Source: Sulfuricurvum sp. (GTDB lineage: Bacteria > Campylobacterota > Campylobacteria > Campylobacterales > Sulfurimonadaceae). From it: a stretch of DNA of 64,000 nucleotides. Below, piece by piece: positions 1 to 20,566 of this stretch. Made by a program: the position numbers and the translations under genes. Position 1 is the stretch's first letter; each line of letters begins with the position of its first letter. Below the pieces are notes generated by a model, which saw only the letters and a program-made list of their open reading frames with translations, had not been told where the DNA came from and ran no database searches. The stretch spans positions 4,638 to 68,637 of the forward strand of contig NZ_JAUYFF010000013.1 in assembly GCF_030691015.1 (NCBI RefSeq), written 5' to 3'.

Positions 1-576
1 GACTTTACCTTCGGAACCAAGAATCTCCTCGTTACCTTTCACCCCGTTACCTTGGAAAATCATACAGCCTCCTATCAATTTCAAGAATTATTAGATGCCC
101 TTGATACACTGGAAGATACCCATATTATCTTTACCAAGGCGAACAGTGATACGGACGGGCGGAATATCAACACAATGATCGATACCTACGTGTCAAAAAA
201 TACGCATAAAGCCATCGCGTTCACCTCAATGGGGCAACTGCGTTATTTGAGTGCCCTACAGTTTGTCGATGCGGTGGTCGGAAACAGCTCCAGCGGTCTA
301 CTTGAAGCACCGAGCTTTAAAATCGGTACGATCAATATCGGAGATCGACAATGTGGGCGGTTAAAAGCAGATAGTGTGATCGATTCGGCTCCGAATCAAG
401 AAGCCATCCGTACGAGTTTGACCAAACTCTATACCCCTGAATTTCAACACCAGTTAGCAACGTGTACAAACCCTTATGGCGAGGGGGGGGCGGTTGAGAA
501 AATCATTCATACCCTAAAACATACCGCACTGGATGATCTGCTGAAAAAATCGTTTTATGATATAGGACTCCGATGA
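1..576 (+). CDS. neuC: UDP-N-acetylglucosamine 2-epimerase (hydrolysing), NeuC/LegG family; 3' part only, 5' end upstream of window
   Basis: Frame 1 is open from base 1 (DFTFGTKNLLVTFHPVT) into the listed ORF. NeuC-type C-terminal motifs GNSSSGLLEAPS, GDRQCGR, NPYGEGGA. Followed by ptmE/ptmF/legF/ptmA-like genes in the order of C. jejuni Cj1328-Cj1332. Confidence 0.8.
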   Translation, partial: DFTFGTKNLLVTFHPVTLENHTASYQFQELLDALDTLEDTHIIFTKANSDTDGRNINTMIDTYVSKNTHKAIAFTSMGQLRYLSALQFVDAVVGNSSSGLLEAPSFKIGTINIGDRQCGRLKADSVIDSAPNQEAIRTSLTKLYTPEFQHQLATCTNPYGEGGAVEKIIHTLKHTALDDLLKKSFYDIGLR

Positions 577-1622
577 AACCGATAGATGCCATTAAACTCT
601 CTTTAACCTCTACCGTACGGGATGCATTGCAAATTATCAACAACGGTGCCATGCAGATGGCCATCGTCACGGATGATCAGGGGAAGCTTTTAGGAACACT
701 TACCGACGGAGATATACGACGCGGATTGCTGGATGGTTTGAGCCTCGGTGATACCGTTGAAACAATACTACATACCACACCCACCGTGGCAACACTCAGT
801 GATACCAAAGAAGATATTCTCAAAAAAGCGCTGAACAAAAAACTTCACCAAATTCCCATCGTAGACGATCAGTATCGTGTACTGGGTATACAAGAGATCA
901 ACGATCTAATCCAACCCGCAACCAAGCCCAATATGGTCGTACTTATGGTCGGAGGATTAGGGAGCCGTCTTCGACCTCTGACCGAAGAGACCCCAAAGCC
1001 GATGCTCAAAGTGGGAAATAAACCTATATTACAAACCATCGTAGAAAGATTTGCCGAATACGGGTTTAGTGAAATAATCATGTGCGTCAACTATAAATCT
1101 CATATTATCCAAGACTATTTCGGAGACGGCAGTGCGTTTGGGGTTACCATCACCTATATCTTTGAAGAGGAGCGTATGGGAACGGCAGGGGCACTGAGCT
1201 TACTCAAAACACTCCCTAATGAACCTTTTTTTGTGATGAACGGCGATTTGCTAACTAATATCAATTTTGATCATCTGTGTAATTATCATCTAGCTCAAAA
1301 CGCGATGGCAACAATGTGTGTCCGTGAATACGATTTCCAAGTCCCTTATGGGGTAGTGAATATGGAGGGCAATACGATCCTCTCCATTCAAGAAAAACCG
1401 GTTCATAAATTTTATGTCAGTGCCGGAATCTATATGCTCAGTCCCGACGTGATCCGATACATCCCTAAAAACCAGTTTTACGATATGCCCTCTTTGTTTG
1501 AAACCCTTATCCAACAGCAGCAAAAAGCCCTCTCTTTCCTGATACGGGAATATTGGCTCGATATCGGTCAGATGGAAGAATATGAACGGGCCAACCAAGA
1601 ATATGCGGGTGTGTTTCAGTGA
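573..1622 (+). CDS. ptmE: CBS-pair + sugar-phosphate nucleotidyltransferase (PtmE-like GlcN-1-P guanylyltransferase)
   Basis: N-terminal CBS pair (GTLTDGDIRRGLL, IPIVDDQYRVLGI), then the nucleotidyltransferase motif LMVGGLGSRLRPLTEETPKPMLKVGNKPIL. ATGA overlap with the upstream gene. Confidence 0.8.
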   Translation: MKPIDAIKLSLTSTVRDALQIINNGAMQMAIVTDDQGKLLGTLTDGDIRRGLLDGLSLGDTVETILHTTPTVATLSDTKEDILKKALNKKLHQIPIVDDQYRVLGIQEINDLIQPATKPNMVVLMVGGLGSRLRPLTEETPKPMLKVGNKPILQTIVERFAEYGFSEIIMCVNYKSHIIQDYFGDGSAFGVTITYIFEEERMGTAGALSLLKTLPNEPFFVMNGDLLTNINFDHLCNYHLAQNAMATMCVREYDFQVPYGVVNMEGNTILSIQEKPVHKFYVSAGIYMLSPDVIRYIPKNQFYDMPSLFETLIQQQQKALSFLIREYWLDIGQMEEYERANQEYAGVFQ

Positions 1623-2530
1623 GGGCGCTCATCATCGGATACGGTTCTATCGGTCAACGTCATTATGATGTTCTCACATCGATAGGAAGCTTTGAAGCGA
1701 TCCATATCGTCACCTCACAAACACTCAATGATCTTACCACGTTTAAAACCTTGGAAGAGGTTCCGAATATTGACACGTATGATTATTTTGTGATCGCTTC
1801 TGAGACCTATAAACACTTTGATCAGCTGATCTATCTTGACCGACACGTCAATCAAAAAATCATATTATGTGAAAAACCCCTCTTTGCTCGATATCAAGAG
1901 ATCACTATCGAAAACAACCGCGTCTATGTCGGCTATGTTTTACGTTTTCACCCGATTTTTGCCTCCATCCGAACTCTTCTAAACGAAGAGACCCCTATCT
2001 CGGTATCGATCAAAACAGGTTCCTACCTCCCCGCATGGAGACCGCAGAGAGATTATCGCACCCTCTATAGCGCTTCCAGCGAACAAGGGGGCGGTGTGTT
2101 GCTCGATCTGAGTCACGAAATCGACTATGCCCAATGGCTCTTCGGTCCTCTAAGGCTCTTGAGCTCCTACCAAGGCAAAATTTCGGATTTAGAAATCGAC
2201 TCAGATGATATCACCGTTATTACCGCTCAAGGTGATCACAATGCACTGATAACGCTCTCGCTCGATTATATCTCCAAAATCCCGATGCGGGAGATGAGTA
2301 TTCATACGAACAACCAAAGTATACTTGCCGACATGATAAACAATACACTAAAAATCGGCACCAAAGAGGGAGAGATTCAAACCATCGCGTTAGAGCCGTT
2401 TGAACGCAATGACCTCTTTATCAAAATGCACCGCTCTGCGTTAGGGGACAAAGAAAACCTATGCACACTCCACGAAGGATTAACCGTCATGAAAACCATC
2501 TCATATATTCAGGAACACCATCATGACTAA
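1619..2530 (+). CDS. ptmF: Gfo/Idh/MocA-family oxidoreductase (PtmF-like)
   Basis: GTG start overlapping the upstream stop. N-terminal Rossmann motif ALIIGYGSIGQRH and EKP motif (LCEKPLF). Position matches Cj1330. Confidence 0.7.
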   Translation: MRALIIGYGSIGQRHYDVLTSIGSFEAIHIVTSQTLNDLTTFKTLEEVPNIDTYDYFVIASETYKHFDQLIYLDRHVNQKIILCEKPLFARYQEITIENNRVYVGYVLRFHPIFASIRTLLNEETPISVSIKTGSYLPAWRPQRDYRTLYSASSEQGGGVLLDLSHEIDYAQWLFGPLRLLSSYQGKISDLEIDSDDITVITAQGDHNALITLSLDYISKIPMREMSIHTNNQSILADMINNTLKIGTKEGEIQTIALEPFERNDLFIKMHRSALGDKENLCTLHEGLTVMKTISYIQEHHHD

Positions 2531-3224
2531 GGTGCTTTGTACGATATGTGCACGCGGCGGTTCAAAAGGGGTTAAAAACAAAAATATCAAACTCCTCAAC
2601 GGCAAACCTCTCATCGCCTACACTATTGAGCAGGCAAAGCAATCAGGATTATTTGAGCATATCGTCATCAGCACTGACTCCGATCTCATAGCAACCACCG
2701 CTCAGGAATACGGCGCTGAAGTCTTTTTCAAACGCTCTCCTGAAATGGCCTCCGATACCGCCGGAAAATTGGACGTTATCCGTGATGCTTTTATCCGATC
2801 TGAAGAGCATTATCAGTGCACGTTTGATACTCTGATCGATTTGGATGCTACCGCACCGCTTCGAAGTGTTCAGGATATTACGGATTCGTACGCGCAATTT
2901 CTAAGAGACAATAACGATAATCTCATCACCGCTATGCCCTCACGTCGAAGCCCCTATTTTAATCTGGTAGAGATGGATAACTCAGGGAAAGTAGCATTAT
3001 CAAAAAAACTGGAGTGTGGTGTCGTACGACGACAAGATGCACCGAAAAGCTATGACATGAACGCATCGATTTACATTTGGAAACGGGATATAATTTTGAA
3101 TGAAAATTCTCTGTTTCTCGAAAAAACAGGATTATATGTCATGCCTGAAGAGAGATCGATCGATATTGATACGGAACTTGATTTTGAGTTTGTCGAATTT
3201 TTGATGAGGAAGAATCATGATTAA
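2523..3224 (+). CDS. legF: Acylneuraminate cytidylyltransferase family; CMP-legionaminic acid synthetase-like
   Basis: N-terminal CTICARGGSKGVKNKN (CMP-NeuAc synthetase P-loop-like motif), about 230 aa. Synteny with Cj1331. Confidence 0.8.
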   Translation: MTKVLCTICARGGSKGVKNKNIKLLNGKPLIAYTIEQAKQSGLFEHIVISTDSDLIATTAQEYGAEVFFKRSPEMASDTAGKLDVIRDAFIRSEEHYQCTFDTLIDLDATAPLRSVQDITDSYAQFLRDNNDNLITAMPSRRSPYFNLVEMDNSGKVALSKKLECGVVRRQDAPKSYDMNASIYIWKRDIILNENSLFLEKTGLYVMPEERSIDIDTELDFEFVEFLMRKNHD

Positions 3225-3987
3225 AGGACAAGTCGTCGTTATTACAGGCGGAGCAGGACTCATCGGAAAAGAGTTCGTTAAAGCCGTTATTAACAACGGC
3301 GGTATCGCTATCATTGCGGATATCAATATAGAAATCGGTACAAAAGTAAAAGATACCCTCTCAAATGAACTCAATACCCACAACATCGATTTCGTGACTT
3401 TGGACATCACTTCCAAAGATTCTCTCACTGAGACAATTGGCTATCTGAACCAAAAATACGGAAAAATCGATGCATTGGTCAATAATGCATACCCTCGGAA
3501 TAAAAATTACGGGAAACATTTTTTTGATGTCGAATACGCCGATTTTTGCGAAAATCTCAACCTCAATCTCGGCGGATATTTTCTCGCCAGCCAGCAGTTC
3601 GCCCTCTACTTCCAACAGCAGGGATTTGGAAATATCATCAACATCTCTTCCATTTACGGTGTAATCGCCCCAAAATTTGAAGTCTACGACAATACCCCTA
3701 TGAGTATGCCGGTCGAATACGCCGCGATCAAATCGGCACTTTTGATGCTGACGCAGTACATGGCAAAATATTTCAAAGGGATGAACATACGGGTCAATGC
3801 GATCAGCCCCGGAGGGATTTTCGATCACCAAAGCGAGCCTTTTTTAGAGAGCTATAAAAAACAGTGTCTCAATAAAGGGATGCTCGATAAAAGTGATCTG
3901 CAAGGGACACTCATCTATCTGCTCAGCGACATGAGCCGATATGTCAACGGTCAAAATATTATTGTGGATGACGGGTTTAGCTTATGA
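3217..3987 (+). CDS. ptmA: Short-chain dehydrogenase/reductase (PtmA-like)
   Basis: TGGAGLIGKE cofactor motif, NNAYP, catalytic YAAIKSAL (YxxxK). Synteny with Cj1332. Confidence 0.75.
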   Translation: MIKGQVVVITGGAGLIGKEFVKAVINNGGIAIIADINIEIGTKVKDTLSNELNTHNIDFVTLDITSKDSLTETIGYLNQKYGKIDALVNNAYPRNKNYGKHFFDVEYADFCENLNLNLGGYFLASQQFALYFQQQGFGNIINISSIYGVIAPKFEVYDNTPMSMPVEYAAIKSALLMLTQYMAKYFKGMNIRVNAISPGGIFDHQSEPFLESYKKQCLNKGMLDKSDLQGTLIYLLSDMSRYVNGQNIIVDDGFSL

Positions 3988-4541
3988 TACAAGAGATCGT
4001 TTCCAAATACCGATTCGACAAAAGCAGTGACCGTATCGGTCCGGATTGTCCTTTTACCCACTGGAAACTTTATTTGAAATCTTCCATGGTTGCTCTGTGC
4101 CAAAATAAATTTACCTATTTTGGGAAAAATGCAGAGTTTCGCCCTGGGGCATACGCTATTTGCTGTAGCAAGATCTCTATCGGTGATAATGTCATCATCC
4201 GTCCGGGAACAATGCTCTTTGCCGACCCTAGAGAAGGGAAAAGCGGCTCTATCACGATCGAAGAGAACGTCATGATCGGTTCAGGTGTCCATATGTACGT
4301 CCATAACCATCGGTTTGATGATCCGAATCTTCCGATTATGGTTCAAGGACACTACCCGTCCGAATCGATCACCCTCAAAAAAGGCTCTTGGATCGGAGCC
4401 AATGCCATCATACTCCCCGGAGTCACAGTCGGTGAAAACAGTGTTATCGGAGCCGGAAGCGTTGTCACGCACGACATTCCCCCCTTTTCCATCGCCGTAG
4501 GTTCCCCCGCACGCGTTATTAGAAAAACAACGGATGCCTGA
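3984..4541 (+). CDS. Hexapeptide-repeat (left-handed beta-helix) acetyltransferase
   Basis: C-terminal LbH repeats: KGSWIGANAIILPGVTVGENSVIGAGSVVTHDIPPFSIAVGSPARVIRK. Confidence 0.75.
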   Translation: MIQEIVSKYRFDKSSDRIGPDCPFTHWKLYLKSSMVALCQNKFTYFGKNAEFRPGAYAICCSKISIGDNVIIRPGTMLFADPREGKSGSITIEENVMIGSGVHMYVHNHRFDDPNLPIMVQGHYPSESITLKKGSWIGANAIILPGVTVGENSVIGAGSVVTHDIPPFSIAVGSPARVIRKTTDA

Positions 4542-6052
4542 TGTCTAGGGAAGATAGCCTTAAAAAAAGATATCTAATAAAACTTTTTTCAAACCTCATC
4601 AACGGTGCTATCAACATCCTTTTCATCGCCCTCATCCCTAAAGCTTTGGGCCCCATAGCGTATGGGCAATTCAGCTATCTGCAACAGTTTTTTTCTCAAA
4701 TTTTCGGCTTGGCAGATGCCGGAACGTCAATGGCATTTTTCACAAAGCTCTCTTCCAATCCGAAACGCAAAGAGTTGATCTCTTTTTACGCTCTGTATAT
4801 GGGAACGATTTTTATCCTTATCTCTTTCATGATTTATCTCCTGCGATACACCCCATTCACCGAAATATTTTTCCCCACTATTCCGCAAGAGTATATTTTC
4901 ATCGCAATGGGTCTAGGATTTTTGACGTGGCTAACCCAAATTTTTATTAAACTATCCGATGCGTATGCCCTGACCGTATCGGTCGAACTCCTCAAAATTG
5001 TCCATAAATTTGCCTCTTTGGGATTATTGCTCTACTTTATCTATTATCTCACCTTTGATCTCGTCTCTTATTTTCAGTTTAACTACCTCGTCTCACTACT
5101 CTTTATTTTCCTTGCCTCCCTCTTGTTTGTCCGACGTAATGTCTTTAGCTCCGATTTATGGCGACAGAGCGTTCATATCGTCCAAAATATCAAAGAGTTC
5201 GCCCACTACAGCCACCCTATCCTTTTGTTTTCGATTGTCGGGGTAGCGATTGCGATGTTTGACATCTGGCTCCTCCAAACGATGGGGGGTTCTGAGCAAA
5301 CGGGATTTTATACGTTGGCGTACTCTATCGCCGCCGTCTCATTTTTGTTCACAAGCTCAATGACCCCTATCATCACCCGTGAGTTTGCCCGCTCCTTTGC
5401 ACAGGGAGATATAGAAAAAATTCGGCTCCATTTCAAACGCTACATCCCAATGCTCTATTCGGTTGCGACATTTTTTGCCGTTTTTACCGCATTCCAATCC
5501 GATCATTTCATCCAAATTTTTACCGATGAAAAATTTGCCCTCGCCGGATCAGCATTAACGGTTATTGCCCTATATCCGATCCATCAGACCTATGGACAAT
5601 TGAGCGGATCGCTTTTTTTTGCTAACGGAAATACGTCGCAGTATCGCAACATAGGATTATTCACCTCTCTTATCGGTCTTATTTTTACCTTTCTTTTCCT
5701 TTTCGTTTTAAATCTAGGAGCACTCGGTCTCGCGTACAAAATGCTCATCACGCAGCTCATCGGCGTCACGATCCAACTCTATTTCAATACAACCTTTTTA
5801 AAAACCAAAATGACCCCTTTTCTCTTTCACCAGATATACTCGTTTCTTTTCTTTCTTATCGCGGCTTTTGTGAGCGTTACCCTCACCTCATCGATACAAA
5901 TGCCGTGGATCAATTTATCGGTTTGTGCCGTTTTTTATACGGTGTTGACTATAATTGGAACAATCATTTTCCCTCAGATTTTTGCAACATCCCGAGGAGA
6001 AATCAAAACACTTTTTTCCAAAAAACCGAAGGATACTGCTGTTGATGCCTAA
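4541..6052 (+). CDS. wzx: Oligosaccharide flippase, Wzx/MOP-superfamily-like polytopic membrane protein
   Basis: 503 aa and strongly hydrophobic, with many predicted TM helices. N-terminus KKRYLIKLFSNLINGAINILFIALIPKALGP is typical of polysaccharide-biosynthesis (Wzx) flippases. Lies within the glycan cluster. Confidence 0.7.
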   Translation: MSREDSLKKRYLIKLFSNLINGAINILFIALIPKALGPIAYGQFSYLQQFFSQIFGLADAGTSMAFFTKLSSNPKRKELISFYALYMGTIFILISFMIYLLRYTPFTEIFFPTIPQEYIFIAMGLGFLTWLTQIFIKLSDAYALTVSVELLKIVHKFASLGLLLYFIYYLTFDLVSYFQFNYLVSLLFIFLASLLFVRRNVFSSDLWRQSVHIVQNIKEFAHYSHPILLFSIVGVAIAMFDIWLLQTMGGSEQTGFYTLAYSIAAVSFLFTSSMTPIITREFARSFAQGDIEKIRLHFKRYIPMLYSVATFFAVFTAFQSDHFIQIFTDEKFALAGSALTVIALYPIHQTYGQLSGSLFFANGNTSQYRNIGLFTSLIGLIFTFLFLFVLNLGALGLAYKMLITQLIGVTIQLYFNTTFLKTKMTPFLFHQIYSFLFFLIAAFVSVTLTSSIQMPWINLSVCAVFYTVLTIIGTIIFPQIFATSRGEIKTLFSKKPKDTAVDA

Positions 6053-7880
6053 CACCGCTGCACCTATTTTTTCATTGAAATCCGAATACCGAAACATTTT
6101 TATTCTCGATTCGATAGAGTGGTGGGAGGATGCGACGTATGATCCCGCATTGGATTTGGTACTCACGTACGACTTTGGACTAAAACACAAAATTCACGCC
6201 TTGAGAGGCGAGGTTTACTACATCGACCATCTAATCGATCAAGCCACCATGCAAGAAAATAATTTTTTGGTGACCGATTTCTTAAAAAACTGGCATTATG
6301 ATGCTAACGGAAAGGATATTTTCACTTACAAAAATATCCCGTTCGGATTTTCATTACGATTGGATATTTGGAACGATCTGGTCTCTTACACACGCCTCTC
6401 TTTGTGTCTTGCCCAATTAAAAAACATTTCATTCGATGCTCTCTATCTAGGAAGCGACGATATTCGGATAAACACTATTCTAAATAGATATGGCTTTGAC
6501 GTTCAACCCTCCTCCAAATTAGCTTCCAAAGCGGTCTTTTATTTTCCGATTGCGCAGTGGCTGGATGAAAAAATCCGCTCAACAGGTTTGCGAGGAGGTT
6601 TGGTTCGCCTCAGAGAGATCGTTACAGCCATTTACGGCTATACGCTCCCTATTATTGATGCACTTATCCCCAAATCCAAATCTCAACGTGCCCTTTTTAT
6701 CCAAGAGTACCATCCGACGAGAAAGCTCATTGAGATTCTCAAAAAAGACCCTGCCTTACGTATCGTCTTGGTTAATTTTACACGAGGATCAAAACTGCTT
6801 GATCACCGATTTGAGCGTTTGATCCCCATCAGCGGTTCATTAAACGCATTTGATCTCTATGCCTCGGATCAGTTAAGCGCTTTTAGAGAAAACCGTCATG
6901 CTTCTCTTATTCTCACTAACGGCGATAATCTTACCGAAGCGATATACACGATCATCGAATCACGGATTGAGTCACGTATATCTCCTATACTTCGTACATT
7001 GCACAGTGTTATCCGCTATCTTGATAAACATCCGATCCAGCTCGAAATATTGATTGCCAATATGGGTCTCACCGCAACATTGGTCGATTGTGTCTGCAAA
7101 GCCAGAGGTATTCCGAGCTATCTCATCATCAACGGTATGCTGACCAGAGAGTTTATGGATGAAGCCAAATACGCTACCTATATCAACGCATACTCACCGA
7201 GTATCAAAGAGCACTATTTTCGAAATATGAAAGACATTGTTTGTCTCGGAGACCCTCGCATGGATAATTATCCTCCGCTCAAAAGCCTCAGAGTTATTAA
7301 TCGTACCAGCCCTACCATCACAATCGGTACATCTGGATTTAATCCTATCGATTTGAACTCATACGTAGCGGTAGAATTTGAATTTCTATACGATGTGTTA
7401 TCGGCACTACAGAAGATGATAAATACCCTTGCCCCGATGGAGATTATTATCAAAGTACGGCCTAACGGATACGAAAAGCAATATTCCGATTTTGTAGCAA
7501 CCTTTTTCCCCGACCTTCGTGTCCAGCTGATAAGTACCGCCTCTATGAAAAGCGTTCTAGATAAGACTGATCTCTATATCACCATCTATTCGCAGACCCT
7601 TTTTGAAGCCTCTTGCCTCGGTATCCCCGCGATCTATTATAAAAAAGATGCTGAAATAATGTATCCTCCGTTTGACGGCACATCGGAACTGGTAACGGTT
7701 GGCAGTGTTGATGATTTGGTTCAGGCATTTGTTGATTTTCAATCTGATGATACACGTTATAATGCTTTTTTAGATCGCACTGTCATGGAGCGCTATATCG
7801 GTCCGCTCGATGGTAACAACATGCAGAGAAATATCGATTTCGTGTATGAACTATTAGAAAAAGATGGGCAAAACCAATGA
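6045..7880 (+). CDS. Large soluble glycan-cluster protein, GT-B-like C-terminus; candidate (nonulosonic acid?) glycosyltransferase
   Basis: I prefer the ATG at 6045 (ATGCCTAA overlap with the wzx stop, AAGGA 11 nt upstream) over the listed 5955 start. The C-terminal [26 protein letters not shown] resembles a GT-B nucleotide-sugar-binding end. No family recognised with certainty. Confidence 0.4.
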
Positions 7881-8533
7881 TTTCAGGTATAAAAAAAGCG
7901 ATACGACTCTGGCAGCTACGTCGTCGATTTCCTATGAGTACCATTCATGCAGGAGCTATTGCTGATTTTTCATCCGTATTGGAATCGTACTCTGTTTTGT
8001 TTCCCGATACGATAGTAATACACTCCTCTTTGGGACGATACAGCTATATACAAAGCGGGTCGGTGATCAACAATGCTCAAATCGGCTCGTTTTGCTCTAT
8101 CGCCGCAAATGTCCAAATCGGATTGGCATCACACCCGATAGATGGGGTAAGCAGCTCTCCCGTATTTTACGATCCCAGCCAACCGCTTCCCCGTTTTTTG
8201 ACAGCTACATCTCATTACACGGACAATAGCCCTACAACAACTGTCCATACCGATGTTTGGATCGGAACAGGAGCAATGATCAAAGCGGGTATAACCATCG
8301 GGACAGGTGCCGTAATCGGTGCGGGTGCAGTCGTTACCCGTGACGTCGAAGCCTACAGTGTTGTCGGCGGTGTCCCAGCGCGTGAAATCAAAAAACGGTT
8401 CAACAACGAGACCATTCAAAAATTGCTAGATTCTAAATGGTGGGAACTGGATGAATCGACACTACGACGGCTTGCCCCGCTCTTTTCCGATCCTAAAGCT
8501 TTTTTAGATGCTGTAGAGGAAAATACCAAATGA
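7877..8533 (+). CDS. Hexapeptide-repeat acetyltransferase (CatB/Vat-related type)
   Basis: [49 protein letters not shown] followed by a helical tail ([12 protein letters not shown]). ATGA overlap with the upstream gene. Confidence 0.75.
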
Positions 8534-9117: not shown

Positions 9118-9130
9118 TAAGAAAGTGAGC

Positions 9131-12047: not shown

Positions 12048-12051
12048 TCCT

Positions 12052-12873
12052 GTGGAACCGACACTTACCCCTCTCATTTCGATCATTATCCCCCTCTACA
12101 ACGGTGAACGTTTTATTGCCCAGACCCTTGAGAGCGTTTTGGCACAAACCTATCGTAACATCGAAGTCATTGTCGTGGATGATGCATCAACCGATGGAGG
12201 CTGTGACATTGTCCGACGCTATGGCGCCGATGATTCCCGAGTGAACCTGATACTATCCGAAACCAACTTCGGCGGTCCCGCAAGACCTCGCAATATCGGT
12301 ATTGAAAATGCCAAGGGGGAATTTATCGCCTTTGTGGATGCGGATGATGTATGGAAACCTCATAAACTGCAAACCCAACTCGATTTCTTGATAGATAACC
12401 CCGACATCGATATGCTCTACTCACCCGCCGAAATCATTGACGAATACGGGGAAATTTCTCCTAGCCGAAAACAGCGGTTTCTTTCACTCCTCTTGCGATT
12501 GATGTCACCGAAAAATGCGATAATTTACGGCAATTTCATCAATATCAATACTCTGATGCTACGACAACCCCTCACTAGCCGCTTCATCGAAGATAGTCGC
12601 CTTGTCGCTATCGAAGACTGGATGTTTCATATCCTCAATTTGCAAGATGGAATGACAGCCGCCTCCGTTGAGGAGGCACTCATCTACTACCGTGTCCATT
12701 CCGCGTCCATCTCCAACCGACACTCCGATAAAAGCTACCGCAAAATCTTTTATATGCTCTCGCTCCTATTCCTCGAAACGCGCATCTCCTTTGGTCATTT
12801 TTGCTTGGCAAATATCCTAAATAGCGCTAAACTGTTGCGACGCAAACTTGCTAACGCATGGAGTTCTCATTGA
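12052..12873 (+). CDS. Family 2 glycosyltransferase
   Basis: ISIIIPLYNGERFI, VVDDASTDG, FVDADD (DxD). GTG start. Confidence 0.85.
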   Translation: MEPTLTPLISIIIPLYNGERFIAQTLESVLAQTYRNIEVIVVDDASTDGGCDIVRRYGADDSRVNLILSETNFGGPARPRNIGIENAKGEFIAFVDADDVWKPHKLQTQLDFLIDNPDIDMLYSPAEIIDEYGEISPSRKQRFLSLLLRLMSPKNAIIYGNFININTLMLRQPLTSRFIEDSRLVAIEDWMFHILNLQDGMTAASVEEALIYYRVHSASISNRHSDKSYRKIFYMLSLLFLETRISFGHFCLANILNSAKLLRRKLANAWSSH

Positions 12874-13691
12874 CTACCCTCATCATCGGTCAGCACAGTA
12901 ATCTAACTCAGGCACTTCTTGCCGAACTTCAGGGTTCTCATGCACTTTCCTCACGAAAACTATCCGAAAACATAGAACTCTTAGCCCCTTATACCGATCA
13001 AACTATCAATCTCATCTTCAATAATTTTCAAACGGCGACACAACTCAATGAGTCCGAACATATCGCTCAATACATCGAAAATTCGATCCATATTACCGCC
13101 AAAGTTTTAGAGTATTTCAACACAACACCTATTGCCAAGATCATCTATACAAGTAGCAGTTCGGTCTATGGAAACAATATCTTCTGTGATGAACAAGATG
13201 AAGTAAAGCCTCTCAACCTCCACGCATCACTGAAAGTAAGCAATGAAAAACTGATCGAAAAATATGCCGAAAACCGTCAGATCGACTACACAATCGCCCG
13301 TATATTTAACATGTTCGGCGGAAATGACACGTTCTCGATCATCAATAAAATCCTCACTGCCTATACCAAAAATGAGCCATTAACCATCATCAACAATGGC
13401 AATGCTATCCGTGATTTTATCCATATCGACAGTGTCGTCAAAGTTTATCAGCGTTTACTCACCACACCCAATATCCCGATCATTAATATCGGAAGCGGCA
13501 GAGGAACATCGATCCGCAACGTCCTCGATTTTTTAAAAAATCATCAAATCGAACTGCAAACTCAAAATCTATCTCGTGATGAACTCAAAATTTCCACTGC
13601 CAATAATGCGATTATGTCGGAGCTCCTCACGCATAACACCACTATCGATGTCGAGAGCTATCTGTTGGAACGGCTAAAATGCACCCCATGA
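12858..13691 (+). CDS. Extended-SDR (epimerase/reductase)-like protein with degenerate cofactor and catalytic motifs
   Basis: YTSSSSVYG and ARIFNMFG match the extended SDR fold. The Gly-rich loop reads LIIGQHSNLTQAL, and YxxxK appears as HASLK. Confidence 0.55.
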   Translation: MEFSLTTLIIGQHSNLTQALLAELQGSHALSSRKLSENIELLAPYTDQTINLIFNNFQTATQLNESEHIAQYIENSIHITAKVLEYFNTTPIAKIIYTSSSSVYGNNIFCDEQDEVKPLNLHASLKVSNEKLIEKYAENRQIDYTIARIFNMFGGNDTFSIINKILTAYTKNEPLTIINNGNAIRDFIHIDSVVKVYQRLLTTPNIPIINIGSGRGTSIRNVLDFLKNHQIELQTQNLSRDELKISTANNAIMSELLTHNTTIDVESYLLERLKCTP

Positions 13692-14848
13692 AAAAGAAAA
13701 TTTCGATTATTGTTACCGTTCCTCTCTCTCTGGAAACATGGTTCAAAGGGCAGCCCCGATACCTGAGTGATTACTATGATATCGAGATTATCACCTCGAA
13801 TGGCAGCAGCATCGAAAAAATCAAAGCGTATGAAAACGTTACGATCACCCTTGTCGATTTTACCCGCCAAATCAATCCCTTGAAAGATCTTAAAATCCTC
13901 TTCACTCTCTGGTCGCATTTTCGTCGCAGACGACCCGATATGGTCTATTCTATCACCCCGAAAGCCGGACTGCTCGGGATGATGGCCGCTTGGCTTGCCC
14001 GCGTTCCTCTGAGAATACACCTCATTGTGGGATTGGCCTATTTCGGCTCACAGGGAAAACGGCGCTTTCTTCTTAAATCGATCGAAAAAATCACCTATTT
14101 TTTTGCTACCCATCTCTATGCCAACAGTCTCAATCTCCCGAAGATCATTGCCGAAGAGTTGACCTCCAAAGAGGTGAACGTGATCGGATACGGATCGGTC
14201 AACGGGGTGGATACCGCCTACTTTCAAGATACTATGAGTCTCGAAGAGAAATCCTCGCTCCGCCAAAATCTTAGCATTGATGATAGCGATTTTGTAGCCC
14301 TTTTTACGGGGCGCATCGTTGCGGACAAAGGGGTAAACGAGCTTGTTATCGCCTTTGATACCCTTGCGCATAAGCACCCAACCTTTCATCTTCTAATGGT
14401 GGGCGATTATGAGCATCATCTCGACCCTATCGCACCCAAGACGTATAAGCTTATCCAAAATCACCCCCACATCCACGTGCTCCCTTTTCAGCACGATATC
14501 CGCCCCTACTTTTGTATTTCCGATCTGCTGATTCTCCCCTCATACCGTGAAGGACTCCCCAATGTCCTTATCGAAGGGGGAAGTTGCGGGCTCCCCCTCA
14601 TTGCAACCGATATCAATGGATGTAATGAAGTGATTATCGAAGGGGAAAACGGCCTCCTCACTCAGCCGAAAAATATTACCCACCTCACCCAAACCGTAGA
14701 AAAACTCCTGCATGATCCAAGCCTCTACGCGGCGTTAAAAAATAATGCAAGAAAAAGTATCCTCAACCGATACGACCAACATTTTTATTGGGATGCCCTC
14801 CACCGTGAGTTGGAAACCCTCTTAAACACGGATTCTTCGTATGTATAA
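13688..14848 (+). CDS. Family 4 (GT-B, GT1-like) glycosyltransferase
   Basis: [29 protein letters not shown] (E-x7-E region). The ATG at 13688 forms an ATGA overlap with the upstream stop. Confidence 0.8.
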
Positions 14849-15464
14849 ACACTTTTTTAAACCCCTTTTGGATCGCATCGGTGCCCTTTTGCTCCTATTC
14901 CTCTTTATCCCTGTTTTTAGTGCAGTAGTGATTGCCGTCTATCTCAAAATGGGGCGACCTCTCTTTTTTACCCAAAAAAGACCGGGGTATCAAGGAAATA
15001 TTTTTACCATTTATAAATTCCGTACCATGAGCGATGAGCGAGATGATAACGGCGAGCTTTTAAGCGATGAATTAAGACTTAAGGGGGTAGGAAAAGTGAT
15101 CCGAGCCCTCAGCCTCGATGAGCTTCCGCAACTTTTAAATGTCCTTAGAGGGGAGATGAGTTTTATCGGTCCTCGTCCGTTACTGGTAGAGTACCTTCCG
15201 TTGTATAATAGCGAACAAAAAAGACGGCACGACGTTCTCCCCGGTATCACAGGGTGGGCGCAAGTCAACGGGCGTAATGCCATCAGTTGGGAAGAGAAAT
15301 TTCGTTACGATGTTGAATACGTGGATAGTCTCTCGTTTTGGAATGACCTCAACATCATTTTTTTAACCCTCAAAAAAGTGCTCATCAAAGAAGGTATCTC
15401 CCAAGAAGGCTCAGCAACGATGGAAAAATTCCTCGGAAATCCAACACAAAAGAATCGACTATGA
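14841..15464 (+). CDS. pglC: Undecaprenyl-phosphate sugar-phosphate transferase (small PglC-type initiating transferase)
   Basis: About 200 aa with a single N-terminal TM, then [38 protein letters not shown]. Confidence 0.85.
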
Positions 15465-16588
15465 ATAAGCGCATTTTTCTCTCTCCTCCCCACATGGGAG
15501 GAAATGAACTCTCCTACATCCAAGAAGCGTTTGAGAGTAACTACATCGCACCGCTTGGGCACAATGTGGATACATTTGAAGCGCAGATTAAATCCTATAC
15601 CGGTGCGAAATATGCCCTTGCCCTGACCAGCGGAACAGCGGCAATTCATTTGGCATTACGGGTTTTGGGGATTAAAGAGGGCGATGAAGTGATGGCAAGT
15701 ACCTTCACTTTTATCGGCTCTATCGCTCCGATTCTTTACGAACGATGTACCCCGTTTTTTATCGATTCCGATACCGCCAGCTGGAACCTCGATCCTAATC
15801 TGCTAGAAGAGGAACTATCCCACCGCGCTTCTACAAGGAAAAAACAACCCAAAGCACTTATTCTCACCCACCTCTACGGCCAATGTGCCGATGTGAAACG
15901 GATCGCAACCATCTGTGAACACTATGGCGTTCACCTCATCGAAGATGCTGCTGAGAGTTTAGGGGCAACGTATGAGGGGAAACAGAGCGGAACCTTCGGA
16001 AAAATGGGGATTTACAGTTTTAACGGAAATAAAATTATCACCACCAGCGGCGGCGGAATGCTGGTCAGTGATGATGAAGCACTCATTTCCCATGCCCGTC
16101 ACCTCAGTACCCAAGCACGAGACAATGCCCCCCACTACGAACACACCGAATACGGCTATAACTACCGAATGTCGAATATTGTCGCAGGGATCGGTCGGGG
16201 ACAAATGGAAGTTTTACCCGAGAGGATTGAGCGGCGCAGAGAGATCTTTGAATATTACCGAAAAGCTTTTTCAGAAGTACCTGAAATATCATTTATGCCT
16301 GAATTAAAAGGGAGTTTAGGCAATCGGTGGCTTACCACGCTGATATTACCGGAACACCTCTCACCTGAGCGTATCCGCCTCTCTCTTGAAGAGCAAAATA
16401 TTGAGTCTCGTCCCCTATGGAAACCGATGCACGCACAACCTCTGTTTCATGGCACTAAAGGGCGTCTAAACGGGGTCAGCGATATGCTGTTTCAAAGAGG
16501 AATCTGTCTTCCTAGCGGCTCTTCTTTGAGTACGGATGAACTGGAAAAAATTACTTTCCATCTAAAAGCGGTGATGGCGCATAACTAA
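15461..16588 (+). CDS. pglE: DegT/DnrJ/EryC1-family PLP aminotransferase (PglE-like UDP-4-keto-6-deoxy-GlcNAc aminotransferase)
   Basis: [36 protein letters not shown] (PLP lysine). Confidence 0.85.
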
Positions 16589-16617
16589 TTGATAATGCTA
16601 CATCATTTGGCTAAAAT
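16589..16617 (+). promoter_or_regulatory. Sigma70-like promoter candidate in front of pglB
   Basis: TTGATA (16589-16594), 17-nt spacer, TAAAAT (16612-16617). Sits in the only sizeable gap (61 bp) of the glycan cluster. GGAG at 16634-16637 precedes the ATG at 16650. Confidence 0.4.
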
Positions 16618-16649
16618 ACCCTTATAAAAATACGGAGCAACAAAACGAA

Positions 16650-18761
16650 ATGTTAAAATTACACGAAGAACGCAACTCTTTGCGCACGTTATTTATTTTT
16701 ATCGCTATCGCCTATATTTTTTCCATTTCACTCCGTTTTATTTGGATTGACGCTCTTGGAGATGCTCCGCAGTTTCGCTGGAATAATGAACTGATGATCA
16801 ACAATAACGATGGATACTACTTTGCTGAGGGTGCCCGTGATATTCTTGCCGGCAACCATACTGCAAATGATCAATCCCCGATTGATGGGGCACCGGCTCA
16901 ACTCACCGCCGCCCTCTCCAAAATCATCCCCGTGAGCTTTGAAGCCCTTATCCTCTATATGCCGGGATTTCTTGGCTCTTTGATTGTTATCCCGATGATT
17001 TTGATCGGCCGTGCGCTCAACCAAACGACCTTGGGCTTTATATCCGCACTCATCGCCTCCGTTGCCCACAGTTATTACAACCGTACAATGATGGGGTACT
17101 ACGATACCGATATGCTTAATATCGTATTTCCTGTACTGGAGATGTATTCACTCATCCTCGCACTGACCCATCAGCGTAACCGCTATCTTATCCCTATTAC
17201 CGTATCGATTGCACTTTACCAATGGTGGTATCCTCAAGCCTACGCGCTCGACACCGCTTTATTCGGGATGATTATCGGCTATGCGATCCTAATTGATCGC
17301 AAAAATATTTATCTTTACAAAATAGCCCTCTTTATCCTTATCGGTATTCTAGCAATCCCGATTATCAGTAAAATAAGTTTAGCCCTTATTTTATTCGCAC
17401 TGTTTCATTTTAAAAGAGACCTTTCTAACAAAGTTTTTTTTGCTACCTTCGCTGCTGTGATCGTCCTCTATTTTTCAACAGGCGGAGTGGATCCGATTCT
17501 TCATTTTATTCAGGGGTACTTTTTTCGGGGGAACAGCGAAACGGTTAGTGCTTCTTTGAACTTTTACGATGTTATGACTACCGTAAGAGAAGCCGGACAT
17601 ATCCCATTCAGTGTCTTTGCCGAACGAATCAGCGGACATCCCATCACTTTTGTTCTAGCAGTCATAGGGTATGTTTTGGCACTTATTGCTTATCGTCCGC
17701 TCCTCATTACCTTACCGCTAGTAGGATTGGGATTCATCGCCATGTCTGCCGGATTACGCTTTACCATCTATGCCGTACCGCCTATGGCAATCGGTATCGC
17801 CTTCTTGATTCTTTATGTCAGCCAATTTTTGACAAAACCTTTTCTTAAGTATTTAAGCATCGGAACCTTTACTCTTGTAGCTCTTTATCCCAACTATACC
17901 CACATTAAAGCCTATATGACTCCACCCGTATTGACCAATCATGAGGTTCTTGCACTTAGTGAACTGAACAAAATGGCTTCGAGTGAAGATTATATGATAG
18001 GGTGGTGGGATTTCGGTTTTCCTATCCGTTATTATGCTGATGTGAAAACATGGGCGGATGGCGCACAGCACTCGGGCGGACAAAACTACCCGATCTCGTT
18101 TGTTCTAACCAACCAAGACCCGATATCCGTGGCCCATATGATGCGGCTTAATACCGAATATATGGAAAAAAACTTTCGCGATAAAAATTCTACCTACTCC
18201 AGTGTTTTTGAATACATGATGCATGAAGAGGGATTTAAAGATCCTAATGATTTTATCACGGCTATAGCTCTTGCGGAATATAAGACACCCCCTAAGACAC
18301 GGGATGTATACCTTTATTTACCGTTGCGTATGATGGAAATTTTTCCCACATCCGCACTCTTTAGCAATCTTGATTTGAAAACAGGGAAAAGTTCCCCCCA
18401 GCCTTTCTTTTATGCCTCACAGAGGATTCAAGACGCAGGGAAAACTATCGAGTTAGGACAAGGGGTCTCGATCATTAAAGCAACCAATACCCTTAAGCTT
18501 GGAACGCAAAATCTCCCGATCAAAGCCTTTTATCAAGTGGGATACGATCCGAAACAAAAACTCCAGGTCAATCGACAAAACTTTGCTTCAGAGGGATTAA
18601 CCGTTATTCATATGGCAAGTTATGGGCAGTTTCTTGTTATGGATGATTTTTATTTTAACTCCACCTACATTCAGATGTTTGTTTTGGAGCACTATGATCG
18701 AAATTTATTTCAGCCCGTTATCCTTAGCCCGTTGACAAAAATTTTTAAATTAAAGATATAA
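16650..18761 (+). CDS. pglB: Undecaprenyl-diphospho-oligosaccharide:protein N-glycosyltransferase (bacterial oligosaccharyltransferase, STT3 family)
   Basis: 703 aa. Polytopic N-terminal half with NNNDGYYFAEGARD (EL1 catalytic Asp region). Periplasmic domain with WWDFG (WWDYG motif) and YLYLPLRMMEIF (MI-motif region). Confidence 0.9.
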   Translation: MLKLHEERNSLRTLFIFIAIAYIFSISLRFIWIDALGDAPQFRWNNELMINNNDGYYFAEGARDILAGNHTANDQSPIDGAPAQLTAALSKIIPVSFEALILYMPGFLGSLIVIPMILIGRALNQTTLGFISALIASVAHSYYNRTMMGYYDTDMLNIVFPVLEMYSLILALTHQRNRYLIPITVSIALYQWWYPQAYALDTALFGMIIGYAILIDRKNIYLYKIALFILIGILAIPIISKISLALILFALFHFKRDLSNKVFFATFAAVIVLYFSTGGVDPILHFIQGYFFRGNSETVSASLNFYDVMTTVREAGHIPFSVFAERISGHPITFVLAVIGYVLALIAYRPLLITLPLVGLGFIAMSAGLRFTIYAVPPMAIGIAFLILYVSQFLTKPFLKYLSIGTFTLVALYPNYTHIKAYMTPPVLTNHEVLALSELNKMASSEDYMIGWWDFGFPIRYYADVKTWADGAQHSGGQNYPISFVLTNQDPISVAHMMRLNTEYMEKNFRDKNSTYSSVFEYMMHEEGFKDPNDFITAIALAEYKTPPKTRDVYLYLPLRMMEIFPTSALFSNLDLKTGKSSPQPFFYASQRIQDAGKTIELGQGVSIIKATNTLKLGTQNLPIKAFYQVGYDPKQKLQVNRQNFASEGLTVIHMASYGQFLVMDDFYFNSTYIQMFVLEHYDRNLFQPVILSPLTKIFKLKI

Positions 18762-18763
18762 GT

Positions 18764-20566
18764 ATGGCATTAACTAAAAAAGAGGCTAATTTAGGGCTGC
18801 CGGCCCCCACTTTTATCACAAGATCACTCTTTTTTTTAAGTGCTGATTTTATCCTCTTTTTTGTATCGCTTTATTTTGCGTATGCGCTTCGTTTTGATTT
18901 TAATATCCCTCTACATTATATGTCCCAATTTTATTTTGTCTTCTTTACTCTCGTATTATTAAAATGGGGAAGCTTTTATCTCTTTGGAATCTATCGTATG
19001 ACATGGCGTTTTTTCGGTCTGCAAGATGCCAAACAGCTCTTTTATGCCCATATTCTTGCCTTTACAGGTTTTTTTATCCTCTATTTACTCAATACTTCCC
19101 TCTTTTTTCCGATGCCTCGAAGTGTTATCGGTATCGATATGGTTTTATCCCTTATTTTAATCGGCGCATTACGTTTATCTAAACGGCTTATGATAGAGTC
19201 TTCCAAAGGAGATGCCCACAAACCTACCCTGATTATAGGGATCTCCGCGAATACGGCAAACCTCATCAAAAGTATGCTTGAGGATTCAAACGATTATTAT
19301 CCCGTAGGAATTATTGCGGTACAAGAAAAAAACTATAACCTGATCAATTCAACCATCCAAAATCTTAAAATATCCGGGGCAAATGACCTTGGTGTATTAC
19401 TCGAATCAAAACGAGTCTCGGCAGCCATTATTGACGGGTCGCTACCCAGTGAGTATCTGCAACACGCCTATAAAATCCTCTCCGATGCCGGGATAACCGA
19501 TATTAAGCGCTCCACCCTTTTATCCGATGGAAAAGAGTCTATTACCTCTTTATCGGTGGAAGAGCTCCTCGCCCGCCATCCTAAAGATCTCGATACCCAA
19601 ACCATTGAAGCCTTTATTAGTGAGAAGTGCGTCCTTATCACCGGTGCTGGGGGAAGCATAGGAAGCGAGATTGTTTTGCAATGTCACCGCTTCGGTGCGC
19701 AAAAACTTATTTTGATCGATCACAGCGAATACAATCTCTACCAAATCGGTGAAAAAGTCCCCTCAGCCGAGCTCTATTTATGCAATATTATCGATCGTGA
19801 CACACTAGACGGAATTATAGAAAAAAGCCGGCCCGACATCGTCATTCATGCGGCGGCGTATAAACACGTTCCTCTCTGTGAAGCAAATATCCAAACGGCG
19901 ATCATGAACAATGTCATAGGGAGCCGCAATGTCATCGACAGTGCGATAGAACATAATGTTCCGAAAATTGTCATTATCTCAACCGACAAAGCGGTCCGTC
20001 CTACTAATGTGATGGGAACAACAAAGCGGGTGGTAGAGCTTTATGCCCAAAATGTCGATCCTCGTAACAGTGAAATCGTTGCGGTACGATTCGGAAACGT
20101 TCTCGGCTCCAGTGGGAGCGTTATCCCAAAATTCAAATCTCAAATCGAAGCGGGTGGGCCGATTACCCTGACCCATCCCGATATTACCCGCTATTTTATG
20201 CTCATCAGCGAAGCATGCCAGCTTGTTTTACAGGCTGCTGCCATTGCACGCGGAGGAGAGCTCTTTATTCTCGATATGGGGGAGAGTGTCAAAATCGCCG
20301 ATTTGGCACACACAATGATTCGCCTTTATGCGTCCGTACCTATCGATATCGTCTATACCGGCTTACGCCCGGGGGAAAAGCTCTATGAAGAACTGCTTAT
20401 CGATGAGAGTGAACAAAAAACGGCATTTGAATCGATTATGATTGCCCGTTCCACCCATTACCCGATTGAAACGTTAAAAGAAGATATAGAAAAACTCTTA
20501 GCGAATACTAACGCCATTGAAGCGTTGCAGAAGATTGTACCGGAGTTCCAACCCTCCGGTACATGA
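18764..20566 (+). CDS. pglF: Membrane-anchored UDP-GlcNAc 4,6-dehydratase (PglF/CapD family)
   Basis: N-terminal TM helices, then ITGAGGSIGSE, AAYKHVPL, ISTDKAV. Confidence 0.85.
   Translation: MALTKKEANLGLPAPTFITRSLFFLSADFILFFVSLYFAYALRFDFNIPLHYMSQFYFVFFTLVLLKWGSFYLFGIYRMTWRFFGLQDAKQLFYAHILAFTGFFILYLLNTSLFFPMPRSVIGIDMVLSLILIGALRLSKRLMIESSKGDAHKPTLIIGISANTANLIKSMLEDSNDYYPVGIIAVQEKNYNLINSTIQNLKISGANDLGVLLESKRVSAAIIDGSLPSEYLQHAYKILSDAGITDIKRSTLLSDGKESITSLSVEELLARHPKDLDTQTIEAFISEKCVLITGAGGSIGSEIVLQCHRFGAQKLILIDHSEYNLYQIGEKVPSAELYLCNIIDRDTLDGIIEKSRPDIVIHAAAYKHVPLCEANIQTAIMNNVIGSRNVIDSAIEHNVPKIVIISTDKAVRPTNVMGTTKRVVELYAQNVDPRNSEIVAVRFGNVLGSSGSVIPKFKSQIEAGGPITLTHPDITRYFMLISEACQLVLQAAAIARGGELFILDMGESVKIADLAHTMIRLYASVPIDIVYTGLRPGEKLYEELLIDESEQKTAFESIMIARSTHYPIETLKEDIEKLLANTNAIEALQKIVPEFQPSGT

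Follow-up and report, generated by a model that had tools for sequence, protein, structure and literature searches.

A Sulfuricurvum pgl island joins a mobile legionaminic-acid cassette to pglB and may encode a legionaminic-acid-capped N-glycan

Which glycan does the N-oligosaccharyltransferase PglB use when its gene shares one cluster with a legionaminic-acid (Leg) pathway and a Wzx-type flippase? The question is raised by contig C8 of a 2.33-Mb, 19-contig metagenome-assembled genome (MAG) of Sulfuricurvum, of which a 64-kb stretch was analysed (the window, C8:4638-68637; positions given without a contig name are those of the window). PglB of this host is 96% identical to PglB of one Sulfuricurvum MAG, all of its close matches come from Sulfuricurvum or Sulfurimonadaceae, and DNA of the locus was detected in groundwater metagenomes; the host is a groundwater sulfur-oxidising bacterium. 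The locus is real and well defined, is read in one direction, and is best explained as an N-glycosylation island. Directly observed were the genes it contains, the families to which they belong, the preserved catalytic motifs, the synteny, and the separation in the genome from the flagellar and lipopolysaccharide (LPS) systems. We predict, with an even chance of being right, that its product is a short acetylated and methylated oligosaccharide capped with Leg, which would be built on undecaprenyl pyrophosphate (Und-PP)-linked N,N'-diacetylbacillosamine (diNAcBac), flipped by Wzx and used by PglB. Within this pathway we infer the order of the sugars, the Leg cap, the donor used by a protein of 611 amino acids (aa), the substrate of Wzx and the final acceptor.

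In bases 1-20566, 20 of 20 consecutive open reading frames (ORFs) lie on the + strand. As an earlier note on this DNA had described, genes are joined by 4-nucleotide (nt) start/stop overlaps at 573/576, 1619/1622, 3984/3987, 7877/7880, 8530/8533, 10264/10267, 11247/11250 and 15461/15464, and the sole real gap is the 61 nt at 16589-16649, directly 5' of pglB; the ORF listing agrees on each of these points, and elsewhere neighbouring genes overlap by 1-16 nt or are separated by 2-4 nt. The gene content that it had listed was likewise recovered by Pfam and NCBIfam scans of each coding sequence (Table 1). Its description of a cluster of about 20 genes beginning at base 1 was right in strand and content but not in extent, as that edge is the cut of the window: the cluster continues 4.6 kb upstream, where legB, legC, legH, legI and the 5' part of legG occupy C8:151-5213. 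The whole unit comprises 25 co-directional genes in ~25 kb between metK and the convergent ilvD. The last 54 codons of metK directly precede legB on C8, and metK overlaps legB by 4 nt in the relatives G001 and G003. At the other end, most Sulfuricurvum loci that extend far enough have ilvD, 89-98% identical, next to pglF. G001 and G003, the nearest relatives, have the same 25-gene order minus the methyltransferase, which is absent from otherwise identical clusters of nearest relatives (L002-L004).

PglB, the enzyme on which the question turns, carries its three domains above their cut-offs (PF02516 94.8 bits, PF21436 148 bits, PF18527 77 bits) and aligns over its full length to Campylobacter lari PglB (5OGL; 2e-143, ~40% identical). 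It keeps the C. lari residues D56, D154/D156, E319 and R331, the last of which reads the acidic residue at -2, together with WWDxG and MxxI; in a residue alignment to 5OGL the motifs take the forms NNDGYY, YYDTDM, TVRE, FAERIS, WWDFG and MMEI. The score against NF050801, the Campylobacter PglB equivalog, is 581 bits, below the cut-off of 1300, as for a diverged orthologue. Judged by these residues, PglB is very probably active and probably needs an acidic residue at sequon position -2, so that transfer would be to D/E-X-N-X-S/T sites of periplasmic and surface proteins. No second STT3 was found in the genome.

The set for the synthesis and priming of diNAcBac, PglF, PglE and PglC, is present. 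PglC matches the structures 8G1N and 8E37 of the Campylobacter diNAcBac-1-P transferase along its entire length (270 bits), and PglE, which is also 36% identical to the cluster's own LegC, and PglF likewise find their closest solved relatives in Campylobacter; this makes diNAcBac, or a close derivative of it, the most likely sugar at the reducing end. A second small phosphoglycosyltransferase was not found in the genome, as tblastn with PglC returned only PglC itself. There is no dedicated PglD between pglC and pglE, and the genome encodes no NeuD/PglD-family protein other than LegH; a pglD gene does lie between pglC and pglB or pglE in the relatives L005 and L014-L017. The 4-N-acetylation for diNAcBac is probably supplied by LegH, or else by one of the left-handed beta-helix (LbH) acetyltransferases of the cluster. 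If LegH supplies it, the Leg and pgl modules are metabolically interdependent. PglF, PglE and the N-acetyltransferase (LegH or an LbH protein) would make UDP-diNAcBac, PglC would place diNAcBac on undecaprenyl phosphate, and the chain would be extended by the GT4, GT2 and WaaS/CpsH-type glycosyltransferases (GTs). None of these transferases is a member of the PglA, PglJ, PglH or PglI families: the GT4 enzyme scores 38 bits to PglJ (cut-off 500) and 35 bits to PglH (600), and the GT2 enzyme 69 bits to PglI (500).

All nine enzyme types of the Leg pathway, including PtmE, PtmF and PtmA, are encoded. The contig upstream of the window carries a LegB-type dehydratase, the LegC aminotransferase, the NeuD/PglD-type acetyltransferase LegH, the NeuB-type synthase LegI and the start of legG, so that the pathway is complete and the unit has 25 genes; legG starts at C8:4053 and its complete ORF is 386 aa. 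LegI scores 525 bits as a NeuB_NnaB equivalog (cut-off 399.65), and the PtmA-type short-chain dehydrogenase 281 bits against the PtmA model NF050062, below the cut-off of 350. Orthologues of the PtmE-like protein, 88-89% identical, occupy the same position in G001 and G003. The CMP-nonulosonate synthetase was assigned as LegF rather than PseF because the PseF model gives 151 bits (cut-off 205.7) and the real PseF lies on contig C4. The predicted product of the nine genes is CMP-legionaminic acid or a close 5,7-diamino isomer, such as 4-epi-Leg, 8-epi-Leg or another 5,7-diamino nonulosonate. A G8 run in legG (483-490) is unlikely to be a phase-variation switch, and this reading was rejected: the run codes for the conserved GEGGA motif, and in the G001 and G003 orthologues it is broken; G/C runs of at least 8 number 13 genome-wide, at or below chance.

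The finished, unpolymerised oligosaccharide would be flipped by the cluster's own Wzx. This protein lies at the border of PF01943 (27.3 bits by hmmscan and 28.7 bits in the genome search, cut-off 28.2), and a crude hydropathy count gives ~9 hydrophobic segments, against the 10-14 transmembrane (TM) helices expected of the MOP family; its orthologues in related cassettes, that of Candidatus Sulfurimonas marisnigri among them, match PF01943 and MatE. No paralogue of it was found by sequence in the genome. A hidden PglK was also sought and rejected: of the four ATP-binding cassette (ABC) exporters in the genome none is on C8 and none reaches the PglK cut-off, the best giving 227 bits to PglK (cut-off 1000) and 531 bits to MsbA, as expected of an MsbA-like protein. 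With no PglK, the C8 Wzx is the only in-cluster flippase. C8:1-25203 encodes no polytopic protein besides Wzx, PglB and PglF, so the cluster has no polymerase, and it has no Wzz-like chain-length regulator either; contig C19 is where the Wzy-like, Wzz-like and Wzy_C proteins are encoded. That Wzy, Wzz, PglK, Maf and WaaL are missing from the window, as the earlier note had stated, is correct for the window; elsewhere the genome encodes a WaaL-like Wzy_C protein (C19), a Maf (C4) and a second Wzx (C19).

We propose that the Leg cap would be added by the 611-aa GT-B protein encoded next to Wzx, and that the chain would be decorated by three LbH acetyltransferases and the methyltransferase. The 611-aa protein has no Pfam match, and its AlphaFold2 model (predicted local distance difference test 85, predicted template-modelling score 0.85) has a GT-B fold. 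A sialyl- or Kdo-transferase match was sought and not obtained: the search of the model against PDB gave generic GT-B folds, with UDP-GlcNAc 2-epimerases as top matches and the CDP-ribitol transferase TarL at rank 41, and it therefore backs the GT-B fold and not the donor. A role as Wzy was dismissed, as the protein has no TM segments. Its family numbers 597 proteins at E<=1e-5, nearly all of them unnamed. The protein is a candidate CMP-Leg transferase by context, not by family membership.

The context in question is a conserved gene block. Four distant relatives of the 611-aa protein were compared (n=4: Rhodoferax lithotrophicus, a Nitrosomonadales MAG, a Comamonadaceae MAG and S. marisnigri). 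The proteins are 50-53% identical to it, and in 4 of 4 genomes the gene adjoins Wzx and the Leg module. The three betaproteobacterial genomes share the block Leg-LbH-Wzx-611-aa-LbH-LbH-SDR, in which SDR is a short-chain dehydrogenase/reductase of ~376 aa and LbH1 is kept directly upstream of Wzx; S. marisnigri has the same neighbours with a few genes inserted. The 385-aa SDR that ends the block in Sulfuricurvum is 61% identical to its homologue in the Comamonadaceae cassette. To judge by this synteny, the 5' half of the island, which runs from the Leg module up to and including the SDR, is an O-unit-type cassette that moves horizontally and lies upstream of a fixed pglB-pglF unit. The co-inheritance of Wzx with the Leg genes and the 611-aa protein argues that the flipped unit carries the nonulosonate. 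As a separate observation, the PglB-less Leg-Wzx cluster of the Nitrosomonadales MAG has at its end, after the GT4 gene, a protein of 968 aa for which ~22 TM segments are predicted (L066, 4835-7741); it could be the polymerase, ligase or transferase of that cluster.

Downstream of the cassette, the 61-nt gap contains the sigma-70-like element TTGATA-17 nt-TAAAAT, which gave 10 of 12 matches in the promoter scan and is followed by GGAG and the ATG of pglB; no terminator-like hairpin was seen in the gap. When 16589-16649 was compared with its equivalents in L001-L012, L019, L043 and L046, the spacer TTGATAA..N..TTTGGCTAAAATAC..AAAA.ACGGAG was more conserved across Sulfuricurvum than the coding sequence 5' of it. 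The element is kept in ~14 of 16 Sulfuricurvum loci whatever gene is upstream, and the flanking coding sequence diverges. Overall the promoter scan showed no excess (50 against 41.9±6.6 in shuffled sequence), nor did terminators (18 against 17.4±4.4), and the pglB-proximal site alone gained support, because it is conserved. The pair pglB-pglF therefore probably has a dedicated promoter and ribosome-binding site, and transcription of the whole cluster as one obligatory unit is improbable. From wastewater RNA libraries, Logan contigs of relatives (~90-95% identical), which carry no operon boundaries, span the GT4-pglC, pglC-pglE, pglE-pglB and pglB-pglF junctions, a weak indication given that DNA carry-over is possible. 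Read-through combined with an internal promoter is the likely picture of transcription. The earlier note had held that its reading would fail if the two modules were separately transcribed and functionally independent. The separate promoter-like element speaks in part for separate transcription; it does not show functional independence, because pglC and pglE lie upstream of the element and pglF downstream.

Among 151 Sulfurimonadaceae genomes sampled, PglB was found in 131 (109 of 115 among high-quality genomes) and a LegI-type synthase in 34, with both genes on one contig in 17. In 10 of these 17 the Leg synthase and pglB genes are 10-35 kb apart on the same strand (G000, G038, G079, G112, G170, G069, G026, G091, G059 and G095, from four genus groups); among the remaining pairs one is 62 kb apart and six, most of them from one genus group, are separated by at least 295 kb. 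Such proximity would arise by random placement in ~2-3% of pairs, a figure to be read with the genomes not being phylogenetically independent. The linkage recurs in relatives carrying different glycosyltransferases (G010, G008 and S. marisnigri), in keeping with the coupling proposed in the earlier note. In G010 and G008, more distant Sulfuricurvum genomes whose PglB is 68-69% identical, the island starts with the Leg module and ends with pglB, with unrelated genes between them. The G010 island (L057-L058) has 29 co-directional genes, including a carbamoyltransferase and a 407-aa polytopic protein; that of G008 (L059-L061) has a PglK-like ABC transporter directly upstream of legB, pglB 31 kb later, a radical-SAM protein and a sugar kinase/cytidylyltransferase-like protein. 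This content suggests serotype-like variation of the presumed N-glycan, with either type of flippase in use. Linkage of Leg genes and pglB backs coupling and is supportive, not decisive, as glycan loci tend to aggregate. In G069 (C5:72048-74129), a relative of the same genus, we also noted a PglB homologue, 41% identical, whose open frame of 1010 aa exceeds the usual length by ~300 aa and lies 11 kb downstream of a Leg synthase gene.

The island is one of three separate glycoconjugate systems in the genome. The first of the others, at C4:481-500 kb, is a standard pseudaminic-acid (Pse) flagellin glycosylation island, with two flagellins (~680 aa), the sole Maf, PseC (489 bits, cut-off 424), PseF (342, 206), PseG (229, 154), PseH, PseI (512, 340) and PseA-like amidotransferases. 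Leg is a flagellin sugar in C. jejuni, and a genome that has a Maf and two flagellins might use CMP-Leg mainly for Maf-dependent O-glycosylation of flagellin, with the Leg genes only stored beside the pgl genes. We regard this as very improbable: the single Maf has the flagellins on one side and, on the other, a complete Pse pathway that includes PseA-type amidotransferases, and the Leg module is co-inherited with Wzx and the GT-B protein in non-flagellar cassettes. The Leg module is not the flagellar set, which supports the reading of the earlier note. Directly upstream of the flagellin genes, C4:476042-481182 encodes several small proteins whose N-termini (…GISLVEMIIAVILF…) resemble those of type IV pilins or pseudopilins, together with ORFs of 522 aa and 346 aa that are GspE/GspF-sized; the genes resemble a pilus or type II secretion-like set beside the flagellin glycosylation island.

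The third system, at C19:1-44 kb, is a full LPS/O-antigen locus with a second Wzx (C19:6002), an 8-TM Wzy-like protein, WecA, a Wzz-like protein, FnlA/B/C-like genes, CDP-sugar genes and heptosyltransferases. The search for waaL, wzy and maf elsewhere in the genome, which the earlier note had called for, thus found WaaL-like and Wzy-like proteins here and Maf on C4; the WaaL-like protein, at C19:29458, is the genome's sole Wzy_C protein. The metK genes near these loci form an observation of their own. Near-identical metK sequence is collapsed on C5 (1106 bp); its 3' side joins the C8 (C8:2-163) and C19 (C19:2-160) islands, and its 5' side joins the right end of C19 (C19:249644-249856) and C13 (C13:1-213). 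Two copies of metK therefore seem to exist, each immediately in front of a surface-glycan island, and C19:63655-64782 encodes a third paralogue with 42% identity.

Several of these findings weigh against a single Leg-capped N-glycan. The structural neighbours of the 611-aa protein are 2-epimerases and not known sialyl or nonulosonate transferases, and its C-terminal 158 aa match NF046086, the BFO_1060 family, weakly (33.9 bits, below the cut-off of 200). The cassette also occurs without PglB, which was not found in Rhodoferax lithotrophicus or the Nitrosomonadales MAG, the two that were searched among the three betaproteobacterial genomes; it therefore serves other end-users and is not specific to N-glycosylation, and the PglB-less cassettes presumably feed O-antigen or capsule. 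The conserved promoter-like element probably lets pglB-pglF be expressed independently of the variable part, to judge from its conservation, and one genus group with complete genomes has its Leg genes 60 kb to 1.2 Mb from pglB. With a WaaL-like ligase in the genome, LPS use of the cluster product is possible, and WaaL-type ligases are usually permissive. In C. jejuni the pgl locus has the lipooligosaccharide locus with neuBCA as its immediate neighbour and receives nothing from it; glycan loci tend to cluster anyway.

On such grounds the two pathways might be separate, the Leg cassette (perhaps with some of the glycosyltransferases) making an O-unit that would pass by Wzx and the WaaL-like ligase to lipid A-core, and PglB using a Leg-free glycan; their adjacency would then reflect no more than a general surface-glycan island, like that of C. 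jejuni. PglB-free carriers of the cassette, the Wzy_C/WaaL-like protein, the element in front of pglB-pglF and the several relatives with Leg genes far from pglB all favour it, as does the start of the C8 and C19 loci after near-identical metK genes, which hints at one family of exchangeable islands. We nevertheless consider full separation unlikely. PglC is the only initiating transferase in the cluster and Wzx the only flippase, a separate N-glycan would find neither PglK nor a third Wzx in the genome, and the LPS locus is self-sufficient, with its own Wzx, WecA and Wzy-like protein; because of these features full separation is disfavoured. Just four glycosyltransferases would have to be split between two glycans, and pglC and pglE in the upstream unit and pglF after pglB leave the modules metabolically interleaved.

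The same Leg-capped glycan might instead be shared, PglB passing it to proteins and the WaaL-like ligase to lipid A-core, with release of free oligosaccharide by PglB also possible. Both enzymes are encoded and the C8 cluster lacks a polymerase; ligases and PglB both accept varied Und-PP-glycans, and such sharing would resemble the O-unit or K-unit pools of PglL/WaaL or PglL/Wzy in other Gram-negatives. Shared use is nonetheless distinctly improbable, since the WaaL-like gene lies inside a complete, separate O-antigen locus that has its own supply, with no tie to C8. The pathway set out in the earlier note, a diNAcBac-primed, Wzx-flipped glycan for PglB that may carry a nonulosonic acid, is supported in part, by the lack of PglK, the single STT3, the single PglC and the intact PglB motifs, and use of the product in LPS is possible.

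Table 1. Features of the Sulfuricurvum island and its 3' boundary, with window positions and the matches on which each assignment rests.
Feature	Position	Strand	Basis or remark
legG/neuC, hydrolysing 2-epimerase	1..576	+	3' 191 codons in window; PF02350 6.5e-33, TIGR03568 NeuC_NnaA 1.2e-53
PtmE-like sugar-1-phosphate nucleotidyltransferase with CBS domain, GDP-GlcN(Ac) route	573..1622	+	PF00483 + PF00571
PtmF-like GFO/IDH/MocA oxidoreductase	1619..2530	+	PF01408, PF02894, PF22725
LegF, CMP-nonulosonate synthetase	2523..3224	+	PF02348 3.2e-26
PtmA-type short-chain dehydrogenase	3217..3987	+	NF006619 380 bits (cut-off 255)
LbH1, O-acetyltransferase (LacA/WbbJ/WcaF-like)	3984..4541	+	PF00132; NF007076 87 bits
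Wzx-type (MOP family) predicted flippase for Und-PP-oligosaccharide, 503 aa	4541..6052	+	PF01943 borderline
611-aa soluble GT-B-fold protein, candidate CMP-legionaminic acid transferase	6045..7880	+	fold model and context
LbH2, CatB/Vat-like acetyltransferase	7877..8533	+	PF00132; TIGR03308 149 bits (below cut-off); best PDB matches CatB, Vat
LbH3, WbbJ-like O-acetyltransferase	8530..9117	+	NF007240 108 bits
NDP-sugar epimerase/dehydratase, SDR of 385 aa, last cassette gene	9110..10267	+	PF01370 + PF16363
WaaS/CpsH-family glycosyltransferase	10264..11250	+	NF053598 224 bits (cut-off 60)
S-adenosylmethionine (SAM)-dependent methyltransferase	11247..12047	+	PF08241 and related families
GT2 glycosyltransferase	12052..12873	+	PF00535 7.5e-36
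Short SDR epimerase-like protein, 277 aa	12858..13691	+	PF01370 partial match
GT4 glycosyltransferase	13679..14848	+	PF00534 + PF13692
PglC, small monotopic phosphoglycosyltransferase	14841..15464	+	PF02397 5e-60
PglE-type sugar 4-aminotransferase	15461..16588	+	PF01041; best PDB match C. jejuni PglE 1O61, 4ZTC, 404 bits
Sigma-70-like promoter-like element	16589..16617	+	in 61-nt gap before pglB
PglB, single-subunit N-oligosaccharyltransferase (GT66)	16650..18761	+	PF21436, PF02516, PF18527
PglF, membrane-anchored UDP-GlcNAc 4,6-dehydratase	18764..20566	+	PF02719 3.6e-109; best PDB match C. jejuni PglF 5BJU, 406 bits
ilvD, convergent housekeeping gene, 3' island boundary	20572..22260	-	PF00920 + PF24877

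The predicted pathway resembles the pgl systems of C. jejuni and C. lari in its full-length PglB with catalytic and sequon residues, in having its closest solved relatives of PglC, PglE and PglF there, and in a short unpolymerised glycan built on Und-PP, here predicted from the genes. It differs from them in that Wzx replaces the ABC flippase PglK and no dedicated PglD is present, in the GT4, GT2, WaaS-type and 611-aa GT-B proteins that stand instead of PglA/J/H/I, in the nonulosonic-acid pathway, three O-acetyltransferases and methyltransferase within one unit, and in the place of pglB between pglE and pglF. The Leg genes have the same nine enzyme types as the C. jejuni flagellin pathway (LegB, C, H, G, I, F and PtmE, F, A), but here form one contiguous block, unlinked to flagellins or Maf and joined to the Wzx-GT-PglB cluster, and the Sulfuricurvum flagellar island uses Pse. 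The betaproteobacterial and S. marisnigri cassettes have the same gene order; in S. marisnigri pglB is three genes upstream of the Leg-Wzx cassette, whereas here it is downstream.

A parallel for the cap comes from general protein O-glycosylation in Tannerella forsythia, to whose proteins Tanf_01245, TFUB4_00887 and BFO_1060 the 611-aa protein is likened by its weak C-terminal match. There a soluble enzyme with a TagB-like C-terminal domain caps a lipid-linked glycan with Pse or Leg before en bloc transfer to many proteins (PMC5420450); addition of the Pse or Leg cap depends on Tanf_01245 and TFUB4_00887, and BFO_1060 belongs to the same group (PMC5420450). Unlike the present system, that one is O-linked, is found in Bacteroidota and has no PglB, and the 611-aa protein is ~170 aa longer. 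The earlier note had also stated that no N-glycan with a nonulosonic acid had been described. This is wrong in general, as an archaeal Leg N-glycan is known, and may hold for bacterial PglB systems. A haloarchaeal N-glycan contains legionaminic acid, according to a passage of PMC11407970 that cites Kandiba 2012. The N-glycan of Halorubrum sp. PV6 / HRPV-1 VP4 (Kandiba 2012, Zaretsky 2018) is like the one predicted here in ending in a Leg derivative and in its STT3-family transferase, and unlike it in the use of AglB, a dolichol carrier and unrelated glycosyltransferases. Neither a bacterial PglB N-glycan with nonulosonic acid nor work on Sulfuricurvum pgl loci was found in the literature searched, which did not cover all journals. 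We know of no nonulosonic acid in the characterised bacterial PglB N-glycans (Campylobacter, Helicobacter pullorum, Wolinella and Desulfovibrio). In the best-studied of these systems the flippase is PglK. The relaxed glycan specificity of PglB is established. Wzx and PglK are interchangeable (Alaimo 2006, as cited in a passage of PMC6025236). Together these two properties make the mechanism plausible rather than radical, and the surprise moderate.

Extending the predicted Leg-capped N-glycan beyond this locus, we tentatively propose, with a little less than even confidence, that Sulfuricurvum and some other Sulfurimonadaceae make PglB N-glycoproteins capped with acetylated Leg, and that a fixed pglB-pglF pair reads out acquired cassettes inserted between metK and pglB. 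Each acquired Und-PP-oligosaccharide cassette would bring its own flippase, Wzx or PglK, giving N-glycan 'serotypes' in free-living chemolithotrophs, and the Leg and diNAcBac branches would both draw on LegH. If this is true, a sialic-acid-like sugar would be seen for the first time in a bacterial N-glycan; the pathway would widen the known chemistry of bacterial N-glycoproteins and would show how O-antigen-type cassettes are recruited to protein glycosylation. It would also offer a ready set of PglB, Wzx and transferases for making proteins with sialic-acid-like caps in laboratory E. coli, and would give a widespread, unannotated GT-B family of ~610 aa its first functional context.

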